From Planctomycetota bacterium (GTDB lineage: Bacteria; Planctomycetota; Planctomycetia; Planctomycetales; Planctomycetaceae): a stretch of 43,237 nucleotides of DNA. Below the pieces are notes generated by a model, which was given only the letters and a program-made list of their open reading frames with translations, did no database searches and had not been told where the DNA came from. Position numbers and translations under genes: made by a program. Positions 1,997 through 32,170 of the stretch are shown in pieces; the first letter of the stretch is position 1; each line of letters starts with the position of its first letter. The stretch spans positions 1 to 43,237 of the forward strand of contig JAHWKJ010000001.1 in the NCBI GenBank assembly GCA_019347905.1, read 5' to 3'.

Positions 1997-4900
1997 GTGC
2001 CGCGACGCGACGATTTGCACAAGATTCTGATCATCGGCTCCGGCCCGATCGTTATCGGGCAGGCCTGCGAGTTCGACTATTCGGGCACGCAGGCCTGCAA
2101 GGCTCTCAAGGATGAGGGCTACGAGGTGGTGCTGGTCAATTCGAACCCGGCCACCATCATGACCGATCCCGATACGGCCGACCGCACGTACATCGAGCCG
2201 ATCACCTGGCCCTACGTGCAGAAGATCATCGAGCGCGAGCGGCCCGACGCGCTGCTCCCCACGCTGGGCGGGCAGACGGCGCTCAACGTGGCGATGGACC
2301 TCGCCCGCCGCGGCATCCTCGATCAGCTCGGCGTCGAGATGATCGGGGCGCGGCCGGAGGTAATCGCACGGGCCGAAGAGCGGGACGCCTTCAAGCAGGC
2401 AATGACGGCCATCGGTCTCGACGTCCCCCGCAGCCACGTCGTCCACAACATGCAGGAGGCCCGGGCGGCCCGCAAAGACATCGGGCTGCCGATCATTATC
2501 CGTCCCAGCTACACGCTGGGCGGCACGGGCGGCGGCATCGCGTATAACCGCGAGGAGTTCGACGAGAAGGTCCGCCGCGGGCTGGCCCTTTCGCCGGTCA
2601 ACGAGGTGCTGCTGGAAGAATCCGTGCTGGGCTGGAAAGAGTTCGAGATGGAGGTGATGCGCGACTGTGCCGACAATGTCGTCATCATCTGCTCCATCGA
2701 GAACTTCGACCCCATGGGCGTGCACACGGGCGACTCGATCACCGTCGCTCCGGCCCAGACGCTCACCGACAAGGAATACCAGCGGATGCGCGACGCCACC
2801 ATCGCCTGCATCCGCGCCATCGGCGTCGAAACCGGCGGCTCGAACGTGCAGTTCGCGATCGATCCCGATAACGGTCGCATGGTCATCATCGAGATGAACC
2901 CCCGCGTCAGCCGCTCATCCGCGCTGGCCAGCAAGGCGACGGGCTTTCCCATCGCCAAGATCGCGGCGAAGCTTGCCGTCGGTTACCGGCTCGACGAGAT
3001 CCCCAACGACATCACCCGCGAGACCTACGCCTGCTTCGAGCCGACGATCGATTACGTTGTCACCAAGATCCCGCGGTGGACGTTCGAGAAGTTCCCCGAG
3101 GCCGACGACACGCTCACCGTGCAAATGAAGAGCGTGGGCGAAACGATGGCCATCGGCCGCACGTTCAAAGAGAGCCTGCAGAAGGCGCTGCGAGGCCTGG
3201 AGATCGGCCACTTCGGCCTCGGCGGCGGCAAGAAGGACCTGTGGGGGACGGCGAAAGAGCCTTCGCAGGATGAGATTCGCCGCAAACTGTCGATCCCCAA
3301 CGCCGACCGCATCTTCTACATCCGCTACGCCTTCAAAGACGGGTCCGACGTCGAGCGGGTCCACGAGCTGACGGACATCGATCCCTGGTTCCTCGACCAG
3401 ATCCGGCAGCTCGTCGAGATGGAGGAGGAGATCCGTAAGGTTCCCCGCCTGGCCGATGCGGACGCGGCATTTTTGCGGCGCATCAAGCAGCACGGCTTCT
3501 CCGACCAGCAGCTTGCCACGTGGTGGCACACAACCGAACTGGACGTGCGCCGCCATCGCAAGGAGCTGGGCGTGGTCGCGACGTTCAAGCAGGTCGACAC
3601 CTGCGCCGCCGAATTCGAGGCCTACACGCCGTACTACTACTCGACCTACGAAAGCGAGACCCGCGTCGTCGACGGCGCGAGCGTCATGCAGTCCGTGGAG
3701 GACGAGGCGCCGGGACCGCTGGCGGAGAGGATGGAGGATGGAGGATGGAGGATGGAGGCAGCCGGCCATCATCCATCCTCTATCCTCCATCCTCAGCCCC
3801 AATCCACCAGCCGCTCCGCGTCCCGGAAGGACCGCGCCGACACCCCGCCGCACCAGCGCATCATCATCCTCGGCGGCGGTCCCAACCGCATCGGGCAGGG
3901 GATCGAGTTCGATTACTGCTGTTGCCAGGCCTCGTTCGCCCTGCGCGAATTGGGCATCGAAAGCGTGATGGTCAACTCGAATCCCGAGACGGTCTCGACC
4001 GACTACGACACCAGCGACCTGTTGTTCTTCGAGCCGCTGACGATTGAAGACGTGCTCAACATCTGCGACCGCCTGCAGCCGGACGGCGTGATTGTGCAGT
4101 TTGGCGGGCAGACGCCCTTGAACCTCGCCCGCGGCCTGGAAGCTGCCGGCGTGCCCATCATCGGCACCAGCCCGGACATGATCGACGCCGCCGAAGACCG
4201 CGAGCGCTTCCAGGCGATTCTGGAGCGGCTGGGCCTCCGCCAGCCGCCCAACGGCATCGCCGTCGACAGCGAGGGCGCCCGCCTCGTGGCCGACCGCATC
4301 GGCTATCCGGTGCTGGTGCGGCCGAGCTACGTACTGGGCGGCCGGGCCATGGAGATCTGCTACGACGAACCGTCGCTGCTCCGCTACATGCGCGAAGCCG
4401 TCGACGCCTCGCCCGACAAGCCGGTGCTGATCGACAAGTTCCTCGAAGACGCGATCGAGGTGGACGTGGATGCGGTCGCCGACGGCGAAACGACGATCGT
4501 GGGCGGCATTATGGAGCACATCGAGGAAGCCGGCGTGCACTCCGGAGACAGCGCCTGCTGCCTGCCGCCGCACTCGCTGCCCGATGCCGTGCTCGACGAA
4601 ATCCGCGAAGCCACGCATGCACTGGCCCGGGCGCTGAAGGTGCGCGGGCTGATGAATATTCAGTTTGCCGTCAAGCGGGAGTGGGGAAGCGAGGATGGAG
4701 GATGGAGGATGGAGGATGGAGGAGAACCGCGCGAACTTGATTCGCCATCCTCCATCCTCCATCCTCCATCCTCACCTGCCGACCACGAGACGCGCCCCAA
4801 CACCACATCGCGTCCCCACCGCGACATCGTCTACATCCTCGAAGTCAACCCCCGCGCCAGTCGCACCGCCCCGTTCGTCTCGAAGGCCACCGGGCGGCCG

Positions 4901-5599
4901 CTGGCGAAGATTGCCGCAAAGGTGACGACGGGCGTGTCGCTGGCCGAGCAGGGCGTTGCGGGCGAGATCGTGCCGCCGCACACCTCGGTCAAGGAGAGCG
5001 TCTTCCCGTTCTCGCGGTTCTCGGGCGTGGACATCATCCTGGGTCCGGAGATGCGCTCTACGGGTGAGGTGATGGGCATCGATGCGAAGTTTCCGGTCGC
5101 CTTCGCCAAGAGCCAGATCGCGGCCGGCAACGCGCTGCCCACTGAAGGGACGGTGTTCATCAGCATGGCCCGCCGTCACAAGCGGCTGATGATTGAGCCG
5201 GCCCGCCGCCTGCGGGCGCTGGGCTTCCGGCTGGTGTGCACCTCGGGCACGGCCGAAACCTTCCGCGAAGCCGGCGTCGAATGCGAAACGGTGAAGAAGC
5301 TGCAGGAAGGCCGGCCGAACCTCCTGGACCTGATGGCCAACGGCGAAATCCAGTTCGTGTTCAACAGCCCTTCGGGCAAAGGCGCCCGCACGGACGAAGG
5401 CCGCATCCGCGCCGCCGCCGTCGCCAGCGGCGTCCCCTGCGTCACCACCGTCCCCGGCTGCCTGGCCGTCGTGACAGCTTTGGAAGCCCAGGCCGCCAAC
5501 CCCGTCCCCCACGTCCGCTCGCTGCAGGAATGGACGGCCGATTTGACTGACGCGACGGCGGACGTGGAAAATCGAACGGTGGAACAGCCGGCACGGTGA
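1997..5599 (+). CDS. carB: Carbamoyl-phosphate synthase large subunit, carrying two in-frame repeat insertions
   Basis: Track ORF 1844-5599. Hallmark motifs: [47 protein letters not shown], second half [22 protein letters not shown] and [25 protein letters not shown], plus an MGS-like C-terminal domain. The likely start is the in-frame GTG at 1997 ([14 protein letters not shown]); the 51 upstream codons are Pro/Arg-rich and look non-coding. Confidence 0.95.
3727..3794. repeat. (GGATGGAG)n / (CTCCATCC)n hairpin element, copy A1, inside carB
   Basis: Left arm gaggatggaggatggaggatggaggatggagg, loop cagccgg, right arm ccatcatccatcctctatcctccatcctc. Translated in the carB frame as [25 protein letters not shown]. 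Confidence 0.9.
4691..4773. repeat. (GGATGGAG)n / (CTCCATCC)n hairpin element, copy A2, inside carB
   Basis: Left arm gaggatggaggatggaggatggaggatggagga (4691-4723), 21-nt loop, right arm ccatcctccatcctccatcctccatcctc (4745-4773). Translated as [27 protein letters not shown]. Confidence 0.9.
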
Positions 5600-5635
5600 C
5601 GCTCCGCCTGCCGCGGGAATGGTACTATCAGATGT

Positions 5636-31064: not shown

Positions 31065-32015
31065 TTACCACAAACCGGCCCGGGGATTCTCGGGCGAGCG
31101 GGCCGCAAGCTCCCGGTACAGACGCTGCGTCTCGTCGTCCGCCTGGGCCGGCACCACAATCTTGATAACGACGAATTGATCCCCCCGCTGGCCTGTCTTC
31201 GCATCGGTCACGCCCTTGCCGCGCAGCCGCAGCTTGCGGCCGCTGGAGGAGGCGGGCGGGACCGTGACTGTCACGTTGCCTTCGCCCAGCGTCGGCGCCT
31301 CGACCTTCGCGCCCAGCACCGCTTCGGACGGCGTAATCGGCACGTCGACGTACAGGTCGCTGCCCTCGCGGCGGAACCACGGGTGCGGCGCGACACGGAT
31401 GGTGAGCAGGAGATCGCCCGCCGGTCCCCCGCCCGGCCCCGGCTGCCCCTGGCCCGCGAGGCGGATCGTCTTGCCGTCGTCGATGCCTGCCGGAATCTTG
31501 ACGTTGATGCGTTCGGTGCGGCCCTCGCGCTCCAGGGCCAGCGAGTGGTTCCCGCCTTCGGCGGCGGTCTGAAAGGGCACTTGGATGTCGAGCGCGACGT
31601 CCTGCCCCCGCATCGGCCGCGGCCCGCCGCGTCCGCCCCCGAAACCGGCCTGCCCGCCCATCCCGCCGAACATGCCGCCGAGGATGTCGTTGAGGTCGAA
31701 CTCGGCCGACGTTCCGCCGGGCGCGCCGCGGGTCGACCACTTGGTCTTCCACTGGAACGGCCCCTGCCCCCATTGACCGCCACCCTTGAAGGCGGCCCCG
31801 TAGCGGTCGAATTGCTCGCGCTTCTCGGGATCGCTCAGGATCTCGTAGGCTTCCTGGATCTTCTTGAACCGCTCGGCCGCCGCGGTATCGCCAGGGTTCT
31901 TATCCGGGTGATACTGGCGCGACAGCTTGCGGTGGGCCTTGCGAATCTCATCGCTGGAGGCCCCGCGCGAAACGCCCAGGATCTTGTAGTAGTCGTCGTC
32001 GGCAGCGGCAGGCAT
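31065..32015 (-). CDS. DnaJ-class J-domain co-chaperone lacking the zinc-finger domain (CbpA-like)
   Basis: Track ORF. DYYKILGVSRGASSDEIRKAHRKLSRQYHPDKNPGD (HPD motif), a Gly/Phe-rich linker and DnaJ C-terminal beta domains. No CXXCXGXG repeats. Confidence 0.85.
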   Translation of the reverse strand: MPAAADDDYYKILGVSRGASSDEIRKAHRKLSRQYHPDKNPGDTAAAERFKKIQEAYEILSDPEKREQFDRYGAAFKGGGQWGQGPFQWKTKWSTRGAPGGTSAEFDLNDILGGMFGGMGGQAGFGGGRGGPRPMRGQDVALDIQVPFQTAAEGGNHSLALEREGRTERINVKIPAGIDDGKTIRLAGQGQPGPGGGPAGDLLLTIRVAPHPWFRREGSDLYVDVPITPSEAVLGAKVEAPTLGEGNVTVTVPPASSSGRKLRLRGKGVTDAKTGQRGDQFVVIKIVVPAQADDETQRLYRELAARSPENPRAGLW

Positions 32016-32093
32016 GGCGCACGAGAGGATGGGCGAGGGAAGCGCGGGAATGATACGAATTGCCCGCGGTGCGGAAAAGACCGGCGGTGGAGG

Positions 32094-32170
32094 GAGGAGG
32101 ATGGAGGATAGAGGATGGAGGATGGAGGATGGCGCCGAGGGGAATCCGCCATCTTCTATCCTCCACCCTC
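32094..32170. terminator. (GGATGGAG)n hairpin copy A5 between co-directional genes (terminator-like)
   Basis: Left arm gaggaggatggaggatagaggatggaggatggaggatgg (32094-32132). Right arm ccatcttctatcctccaccctc (32149-32170). On the minus strand it lies 16 nt downstream of the 32186 stop and 79 nt upstream of the J-protein start. Confidence 0.45.

Follow-up and report, generated by a model that had tools for sequence, protein, structure and literature searches.

G-rich heptameric simple sequence repeats (SSRs) have been described in Xanthomonas (GGGAATC/GGGANTN) and in Nostoc (GGGGA(C/T)T, belonging to the short tandemly repeated repetitive (STRR) class) (Rehm et al., 2015, PMC4692102). The Xanthomonas repeats form convergent pairs of mostly four units, their G-rich strand is under-represented as coding strand, their sequence and length turn over between species, and no regulatory role was found for them (PMC4692102). 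Direct repeats of the heptamer TAACTGA are present in Beggiatoaceae, cyanobacteria and Bacteroidetes (MacGregor, 2015, PMC4679880), and among long simple repeats heptanucleotides show the strongest over-representation in many prokaryotes (Mrazek, 2007, as cited in PMC4679880 and PMC4692102). Besides, short palindromes are known from the Rickettsia palindromic elements (RPEs), which lie in frame in unrelated housekeeping genes and add tolerated peptide segments (PMC10969869), and from the GTAG- or CGTC-tagged repetitive extragenic palindromic sequences (REPs) and their hairpin-forming doublets (REPINs) (Bertels and Rainey, 2011, PMC3116915; Di Nocera, 2013, PMC3733652), of which the intragenic ones are often located in replication and repair genes (Di Nocera, 2013, PMC3733652). 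Here, arrays of the heptamer GAGGATG were characterized in a 43,237-nt stretch of a Planctomycetota bacterium (assembly GCA_019347905.1, contig JAHWKJ010000001.1; the whole stretch is referred to as the window). The arrays were shown to form long hairpins, two of which are translated in frame within carB, encoding the carbamoyl-phosphate synthase large subunit, and to belong to a general phenomenon of heptamer arrays, of which GAGGATG is one common unit.

The 8-mer GGATGGAG was found 18 times in the window, compared to 1.3 occurrences expected by chance, and a search with the 21-mer (GAGGATG)3 allowing up to three mismatches gave 22 matches compared to 0.01 expected. These matches fell into five clusters (3727-3794, 4691-4773, 20005-20032, 27611-27685, and 32090-32170), which places the five copies reported in an earlier annotation of the bare letters (the sequence-only reading) within a few bases of where it had put them. 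Its repeat unit of 8 nt had to be replaced: Tandem Repeats Finder (TRF) gave a period of 7 with the consensus GAGGATG and 100% match for the arms of the two carB hairpins, and successive matches to GGATGGAG are spaced 7 nt apart with a one-base overlap. The 8-nt unit is thus a misreading that arises because consecutive 8-mers share one base at 7-nt spacing. The peptides EDGGWRME and SSILHPPS that it had derived are real for the 7-nt unit, which encodes EDGGWRM on one strand and SSILHPP on the other, but an 8-nt unit would have given GWRDGGME and LHPSIPPS. The peptide of a copy is this unit translation plus a variable loop. The argument that a unit that is not a multiple of 3 cycles through all frames is still valid with 7, and pure (GAGGATG)n indeed contained no stop codon in any of the six frames.

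Four of the five copies were found to be hairpins, consisting of about four GAGGATG units, an unrelated loop and about four CATCCTC units, and the fifth is a solo arm. Two of the hairpins are in carB, one is at the end of nadC, one is intergenic, and the solo arm is in a PMT_2-type gene. Hairpin A1 (3727-3794, plus strand, 68 nt) has a G-rich arm of 4.6 GAGGATG units (3727-3758) and a C-rich arm of 4.1 CCATCCT-type units (3766-3794), and hairpin A2 (4691-4773, plus strand, 83 nt) has two perfect arms of 4.7 GAGGATG (4691-4723) and 4 CATCCTC units (4745-4773). Hairpin 3 (27611-27685, 75 nt) lies between a response-regulator gene (27000-27596, plus strand) and the convergent nadC. Hairpin 4 (32088-32170, 83 nt) is located 16 nt 3′ of the stop codon of a beta-propeller/cytochrome c gene (32186-34147, minus strand) and 73 nt 5′ of a dnaJ/cbpA-like gene (31065-32015, minus strand). 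In all four hairpins the G-rich arm comes first, the C-rich arms are 28 nt long, and the loops, of 11-20 nt by the arm bounds, are mutually unrelated. The predicted RNA folds of A1 (-60.3 kcal/mol, z = -7.7) and A2 (-67.7 kcal/mol, z = -10.5), both translated in the carB frame, and of hairpins 3 (-57.3 kcal/mol, plus strand) and 4 (-52.7 kcal/mol) had z values between -6.6 and -10.5. For the two intergenic copies, the only ones folded on both strands, the other strand gave -56.3 (hairpin 3, minus strand) and -46.3 kcal/mol (hairpin 4), so that all folds together range from -46 to -68 kcal/mol (z from -5.7 to -10.5).

NadC takes its 4-5 final codons and its TAG stop codon (27671-27673, minus strand) from the right arm of hairpin 3, so that the protein ends in ...WRGESASEDGG*. 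The use of a TAG-creating variant as the nadC stop was therefore verified, and the corresponding variant in A1, CCTCTATCC at about 3778, was found on the antisense strand only, as had also been claimed. On the G-rich strand, and not on the other, the variant GATAGAG yields TAG in each of the three frames. Stop-bearing heptamers (CGCTGAC, GATAGAG) exist too and are placed outside genes or antisense. The stop-free nature of the units in genes is a survival filter, not a designed property.

Very stable folds on both strands, and the position of both intergenic copies at gene 3′ ends, are what might be seen if the hairpins were selected as nucleic-acid structures, such as an mRNA 3′-end protector or terminator in intergenic copies, a translational pause or regulatory hairpin in genes, a G-quadruplex, or a protein-binding site. 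In genes, the pairing would be between a Shine-Dalgarno (SD)-like GGAGG plus AUG arm and a CCUCC arm. However, the flanks of the hairpins are GC-rich and contain no U tract, no terminator-like site was detected in 26500-32500, and an Rfam scan of the window gave no match at or above the gathering score.

The carB gene (1997-5599, plus strand, with a probable GTG start at 1997) contains two heptamer cassettes. Its product showed 81% identity to its best homologues, which are CarB proteins of Planctomycetaceae, and aligned with E. coli CarB structures with E = 7e-208. Cassette 1 (3665-3847, plus strand) is a 183-nt in-frame insertion between the positions of E. coli CarB residues 552 and 558, in the domain linker before the second synthetase half, and cassette 2 (4679-4825, plus strand) inserts 147 nt, likewise in frame, into a beta-turn (FAVK^..VYxLEVNPR) between residues 834 and 836. 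The cassettes add 49-61 low-complexity residues to CarB. The requirement that the inserted length be a multiple of 3 was found to apply to the whole carB cassettes (183 and 147 nt) and not to hairpins A1 and A2; the lengths of the four hairpins (68, 83, 75, and 83 nt) are mostly not divisible by 3. The 3′ part of cassette 2, GACCACGAGACGCGCCCCAAC.., resembles decayed GACCACG and CCTCAAC arrays of relatives, and for this reason the GAGGATG hairpins in carB look like a newer layer over older arrays. Both hairpins in carB are nearly perfect and represent young examples of their kind. A 30-nt flank of A2 had no exact match in metagenome contigs.

A comparison of 120 CarB orthologues from Planctomycetaceae (baseline length 1084 aa) showed insertions at site 1 in 34 and at site 2 in at least 26 of them. 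These insertions encode palindromic heptamer peptides in which the units differ by lineage, such as RVEGRESRVEG...LDPRPSTLDP, IADCGLRIADS...SIRNPQSAIRNS and EDRGSRIEDRG, and the isolate Stratiformator vulcanicus (CarB P0042) carries a decayed GAGGATG type. On DNA level, the composite cassettes (GTCGAGG)4..(CGAACRT)6(GACCACG)4..(CCTCGAC)4 and (CAGGAGT)5(CACGGAC)4(CCTCAAC)5 were found at these sites in two relatives. A similar hot spot was found in one loop of verrucomicrobial CinA, where short (empty) alleles occur, of which the DNA of P0170 keeps a single GAAGAT. Most of the proteins have a GAGGATG-type hairpin in this loop, with every stage of decay represented, and other lineages have GGAGATG/GGAGTTG, CGAAAAT, and other units. 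Upstream of miaA, the unit number changes from 3 to 4 between related genomes. These comparisons show that hot spots recur in the same protein loops, with units that change.

Sequences other than heptamer units were also observed. The palindrome CCTCACCCC..CCCTCTCC..GGAGAGGG.. (peptide ..HLTPALSPLLADSQRGEG..) was found either alone or nested in the loops of GAGGATG hairpins, at L022 (~4420-4598), at L085 (~5779-5950), and in the CinA homologues P0127, P0128, P0138, P0154, P0163, and P0169, which suggests that other small palindromic elements target the loops of hairpins. Within the CinA cluster P0200 (P0241-P0254, 90% identity) three alleles were observed, which differ by an insert of 21 nt (NSDKSRA) and another of 33 nt that is nested inside the decayed G-rich arm. 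They represent a recent insertion polymorphism of non-heptamer sequence.

The occurrence of the motif beyond the window was investigated in species-representative genomes ascertained on perfect (GAGGATG)3, and all census figures refer to the matches listed. (GAGGATG)3 was found at more than 119 loci in at least eight phyla, including Verrucomicrobiota, Planctomycetota, Acidobacteriota, Gemmatimonadota, Bacteroidota, and Chloroflexota, so that its distribution extends beyond the window. Most of these loci are from metagenome-assembled genomes, and this is the one property that would point to chance low-complexity sequence or an assembly artefact. Long-read complete chromosomes and isolates, for example S. 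vulcanicus, were found to have the same architecture, reading frames are conserved across independent assemblies, and the 22 matches compared to 0.01 expected in the window leave practically no room for this explanation, which was rejected.

A survey of 0.92 Mb, comprising the window and 121 loci, for arrays of at least three copies showed that 387 of about 528 arrays have a period of 7. These period-7 arrays represent 149 canonical units, and 250 of them are made of units other than GAGGATG; at the census loci, arrays of different heptamer units often abut one another. In the window itself, 13 period-7 TRF rows represent at least five unit types, at least four besides GAGGATG. In the census, perfect runs of three units were counted 73 times, of four units 46 times, and of five units 9 times, which is a sharp drop above four. 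In viral contigs, (GAGGATG)3 was present in 23 stretches, about 17 of them from one phage family, and two stop-free control heptamers of the same composition were present in 11 and 9 stretches and a control octamer in none. The generality of the phenomenon to heptamers follows from the 149 units and from these controls. The possibility that GAGGATG is a special cross-phylum sequence combining SD and ATG was also considered and is weakened, as the control heptamers are about as frequent once the one phage family is subtracted. This family consists of about 17 related IMG/VR contigs (L122-L139, e.g., L124 2983-3003), in which iteron-like AACCAGTTCC repeats are followed by ..TCCGCAGATG(GAGGATG)3-4, and a protein with a ..F.EFWAAYP.. 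motif appears to have its N-terminus (MEDGGWRM..) encoded by the array. The TAACTGA repeats are comparable in that one heptamer occurs in tandem at many sites across distant phyla, often near start codons and other heptamer arrays, but they are almost all direct, not inverted, are intergenic and contain stops in the forward orientation (PMC4679880).

The sequence-only reading had spoken of a repeat family that could be inserted in any orientation or frame. Such a family, if discrete, could be a trans-mobilised miniature palindromic element, comparable to REPs/REPINs, miniature transposable elements with inverted repeats (MITEs), or RPEs, and tolerated in genes because it is stop-free. Near-identical arms of about four units at 4-5 sites in 43 kb are in line with this, as are many copies per genome, such as the at least nine loci in one complete 11.3-Mb Chloroflexia chromosome. 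Intragenic REPs and REP ends that serve as TAG stops have been documented (PMC3733652), and so have in-frame RPEs (PMC10969869). Besides, the nested non-heptamer palindrome and the polymorphic 21-nt insert in the 90% CinA cluster imply that small palindromes do move in these genomes. However, neither target-site duplications nor flanking direct repeats were detected at the junctions of the window copies, which share no core or conserved termini beyond the unit, as a MITE would; the GTAG or CGTC tag of REPs/REPINs is absent, the ends reading ..GAGGATG and CATCCTC-A... The copies on the Chloroflexia chromosome likewise have unrelated loops and flanks and no target-site duplication. The unit number differs between copies, dozens of unrelated heptamers have the same architecture, the unit type changes at orthologous sites, and the frequency of control heptamers is close to that of GAGGATG. 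No associated REP-associated tyrosine transposase (RAYT) was identified in the 43-kb window, where no systematic transposase scan was made. Copy-and-paste therefore fits poorly, since the copies have neither a loop nor a terminus in common and lack target-site duplications, the units are many, and they change at orthologous sites; the family as a discrete inserted unit was abandoned, and a mobile element of any of these kinds is considered unlikely.

The arrays were also compared with two known classes of palindromes. REPs/REPINs are, like the present arrays, short abundant palindromes that lie mostly after genes, are in some cases intragenic and may end in TAG stops (cf. nadC), but here the tag and a conserved family sequence are missing and the arms are tandem heptamers. 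Like RPEs, the arrays lie in frame at tolerated positions of functional genes that are unrelated to one another, as observed for carB and at least 17 Pfam-checked hosts. In contrast, RPEs are conserved, MITE-like mobile families of about 100-150 bp known from Rickettsia only, and the elements described here are no conserved family, as they share only the 7-nt unit, have unrelated loops and occur in many unit types.

Coding copies were found both in the window and in the census. In the window, three of the five GAGGATG copies are coding (two in carB, one in the PMT_2 gene), and of 129 census clusters at least 25 could firmly be classed as coding, a lenient caller giving up to 70 of 105. For arrays of which both flanks are coding-like on one strand up to the array, the frame was kept without a stop in 25 of 29, compared to one third expected without constraint. 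The host genes, as identified by Pfam, encode an AMP-binding enzyme, CbiX, UvrA, UbiD, PriA, a protein with a ClpB-like AAA_2 domain, RecG, Wzy_C, a beta-lactamase-family protein, a GAF-SpoIIE protein, CinA, a nonribosomal peptide synthetase (NRPS) A-domain, and UvrC, and in two MiaB-like hosts the array is at the same site in two species. In at least 17 proteins, Pfam domains flank or span the array. Coding copies are thus enriched for preserved frame and are present in intact translated genes and not only in pseudogenes, which supports the proposal that the repeat is tolerated in coding sequence. Intron-like excision of the hairpins from RNA was rejected because the frame is preserved through the arrays. 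Several of the hosts function in repair or replication (UvrA, PriA, UvrC, RecG, and CinA; L005, L022, L028, L036, and L094), which may be coincidental or result from the large size and multidomain nature of such proteins.

The arrays in genes were shown to be biased with respect to the sense strand. Perfect units in sense read CATCCTC 72 times versus GAGGATG 18 times, and counted by case the perfect arm reads CATCCTC in 17 and GAGGATG in 2, which does not agree with the expected neutrality of insertion to orientation. Where G-rich arms are present in sense, they are usually decayed by G>A changes and encode peptides such as KMEDSK or KIEDS.

This decay also bears on a selected nucleic-acid structure. 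The A.C mismatches to which it leads abolish the mRNA hairpin, and many coding copies are solo arms, so that a conserved RNA function in genes fits poorly. The host genes and sites are unrelated, and the Xanthomonas study found no regulatory role (PMC4692102). On the other hand, arms stay complementary while units change, although template-switch correction could maintain this without selection; the array at the MiaB-like site is near-perfect in two species despite flanks that have diverged to about 80% identity (by eye); the phage family keeps its array at a probable gene start; and cassette 1 of carB lies exactly at a domain boundary. Taken together, these data make selection for a structure a doubtful explanation.

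In three Verrucomicrobiales metagenome-assembled genomes (L045, L107, and L115) a miaA-like gene was found to carry a hairpin at its 5′ end, and in two of the three the ATG of a degenerate G-rich arm is in frame via the loop and the C-rich arm (M..HPPSSILH..) to the Walker A motif. The hairpin may here supply the SD sequence, the start codon and the N-terminus.

Inverted pairs, defined by an inverted partner within 120 nt, showed a strict polarity. The G-rich arm was 5′ in all 43 GAGGATG-like pairs, in 10 of 11 pairs of near relatives, and in pairs of unrelated units in 25 versus 4. In an earlier count of polarity the ratios were 53:0 and 63:12, and the control rate was 6 in 1037. Because the order is G-rich 5′ and C-rich 3′ on either strand, either strand can fold into a hairpin of 23-29 bp.

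Such a polarity is predicted if the pairs are repair scars, in which a break, perhaps at the tip of a hairpin, had each of its 3′ ends extended by reiterative synthesis of about four G-rich heptamers before the ends were joined. The product would read left flank, (G-rich)n, junction, (C-rich)n, right flank on both strands, as observed, and the "always convergent" pairs of Rehm et al. match it (PMC4692102). Unrelated loops, similar arm lengths, the drop above four units, and new arrays at or inside earlier cassettes would fit as well. However, many unit types per genome argue against a single template, and solo arms and direct multi-unit arrays require extra assumptions. The polarity could also be selective, for example if a C-rich arm transcribed first exposed a Rho-loading site, as we infer. 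Repair scars are therefore regarded as an improbable origin of the pairs.

Of the described systems, the heptamers of Xanthomonas and Nostoc were found to be the most similar. Both consist of dispersed 7-nt tandem units, mostly about four, in convergent pairs with G-rich-5′ polarity, both lie near gene ends with the G-rich strand rarer as coding strand, and both change in length and sequence between species. The arrays described here thus have the properties of heptanucleotide SSRs, namely a 7-nt period, several dispersed units, convergent pairs of about four units and variation at loci (carB, CinA, and upstream of miaA). They differ in that the unit is GAGGATN and the hosts are Planctomycetota, Verrucomicrobiota, Chloroflexota, Acidobacteriota, and others; in that GG tracts only are present, which makes any G-quadruplex (G4) potential weak at best; and in that full hairpins or composite cassettes lie in frame in essential genes, at recurrent hot spots with unit turnover. 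Neither in-frame hairpins in essential genes nor unit turnover at hot spots is described in PMC4692102.

With slightly better than even probability, we read the copies in the window as heptanucleotide simple-sequence arrays that are born and replaced in place, not copied from a master element, and are then filtered by selection. An array would typically grow to about 3-4 units (21-28 nt), often as a convergent inverted pair, and an occupied site would stay a hot spot at which new unit types appear and old ones decay. The generating step might be slippage in a 7-nt register or reiterative synthesis, and template-switch correction between the arms could keep them complementary; slippage with such correction would be the conventional reading. 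Selection would then set where arrays persist. Persistence in genes would need the absence of stops in the sense frames, a net cassette length that is a multiple of 3, a surface loop or linker as the site, and usually a C-rich sense strand or a decayed G-rich arm in sense. The reasons for the polarity and for the sense-strand bias are, unlike the two patterns themselves, what we infer from the sequences.

Several points weigh against birth and replacement in place. Slippage alone explains neither the G-rich-5′ polarity nor the paired arms nor the length of four units. The same unit at 4-5 places in 43 kb and in at least eight phyla could reflect spread or a sequence-specific function. No change in arm copy number was detected between pairs at 92-99.8% protein identity or within 90% clusters; turnover is therefore slow, being seen at species or genus distances only, and high-frequency slippage is not supported, as arm polymorphism is absent among close relatives. 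Finally, the census rests on genomes other than the source genome that were chosen by perfect (GAGGATG)3, and its gene calls are heuristic, except for the Pfam-checked cases.

A more far-reaching alternative is that a dedicated process, present in multiple phyla, writes about four convergent G-rich heptamers at lesions or existing hairpins, for example by reiterative extension of both 3′ ends. This is considered rather unlikely. If it were true, the overwriting of hot spots would keep making new loops and linkers in essential enzymes such as CarB, CinA, UvrC, and PriA, and the heptamer excess of prokaryotes would be the trace of a repair or synthesis activity that has escaped recognition, and not of ordinary slippage by polymerases.

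The excess of heptamer SSRs, the STRR, TAACTGA, and GGGAATC families, convergent pairs, arrays of four units, in-frame RPEs, and intragenic REPs are already known. A GAGGATG array string was not found in the literature searched, and we found no description of in-frame heptamer hairpins in essential genes, of unit turnover at hot spots, of a cross-phylum polarity, or of the sense-strand bias. The results show that heptamer arrays are not confined to spacers, since hairpins of -60 kcal/mol and of RNase III-substrate length are located in frame in essential genes. The G-rich-first polarity is strict across unrelated phyla and units, and genes favour the C-rich sense strand. These rules make the origin of the arrays testable and suggest that conserved proteins are steadily supplied with new low-complexity loops. 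In practice, the cassettes inflate protein lengths, spawn spurious open reading frames (ORFs), and can mislead alignment and gene calling in the Planctomycetes-Verrucomicrobia-Chlamydiae (PVC) group, Chloroflexota, and Acidobacteriota.

Besides carB, two genes in the window contain arrays in frame. The PMT_2-type glycosyltransferase ORF (19037-21643, minus strand, 868 aa) has three of them. The solo GAGGATG-type arm (20005-20032, minus strand) reads GAGGATA GAGGATT GAAGATG GAGGATG in sense and is translated as ..EDRGLKMEDE... It is adjoined by other heptamers at 19940-19982 (minus strand; GGCGTTC x3 and GTTCGAT x3.7 on the plus strand), which read GAACGCC and GAACATC in sense and are translated as ..EHRTSSIERRTPNAQ..; this unit family was also found in the carB cassette of the relative P0002. 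The third array, (CTCGACC)x4 at 19739-19767 (minus strand; GGTCGAG in sense), is translated as ..RVEGRESRVESQ.., and the outer arms of cassette 1 in the carB gene of P0002 are built from its unit. The first ~170 residues of the PMT_2 ORF are rich in Arg, Ser and Pro and unlike the remainder, and the true start is probably located well downstream of the TTG. The nadC gene (27671-28663, minus strand) encodes a quinolinate phosphoribosyltransferase with Pfam QRPTase_N and QRPTase_C domains. A second, unrelated palindromic insert was observed in frame at 27973-28059 (minus strand; ..AKGSDPFAEERLSQGLRRTPAKGSDPVG..). Its two arms are inverted, 34 nt long and both include GGGGTCAGACCCC, and the insert splits the Pfam QRPTase_C match in two.

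Two further intergenic heptamer arrays were detected in the window. A hairpin of another unit (26775-26873) consists of (GTCAGCG)x2 (26775-26793) and (CGCTGAC)x5.7 (26832-26873), with TGA on one strand, and a short CTCTCGA/CTCGACC-type array was reported by TRF at 28817-28835, just 5′ of an alanine dehydrogenase/PNT-type gene (28859-29974, plus strand). A 66-aa ORF (26876-27076) begins right after the (CGCTGAC)n array and overlaps the response-regulator ORF (27000-27596) out of frame. In the latter, the receiver domain is recognizable from residue 39 only, which could be due to a mis-set start or a frameshift. Finally, the ORF at 21210-22379 (minus strand) has a prepilin-type N-terminal motif and appears to resemble the DUF1559 family, which is very abundant in Planctomycetes. 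This likeness fits the taxonomic placement of the window from CarB.

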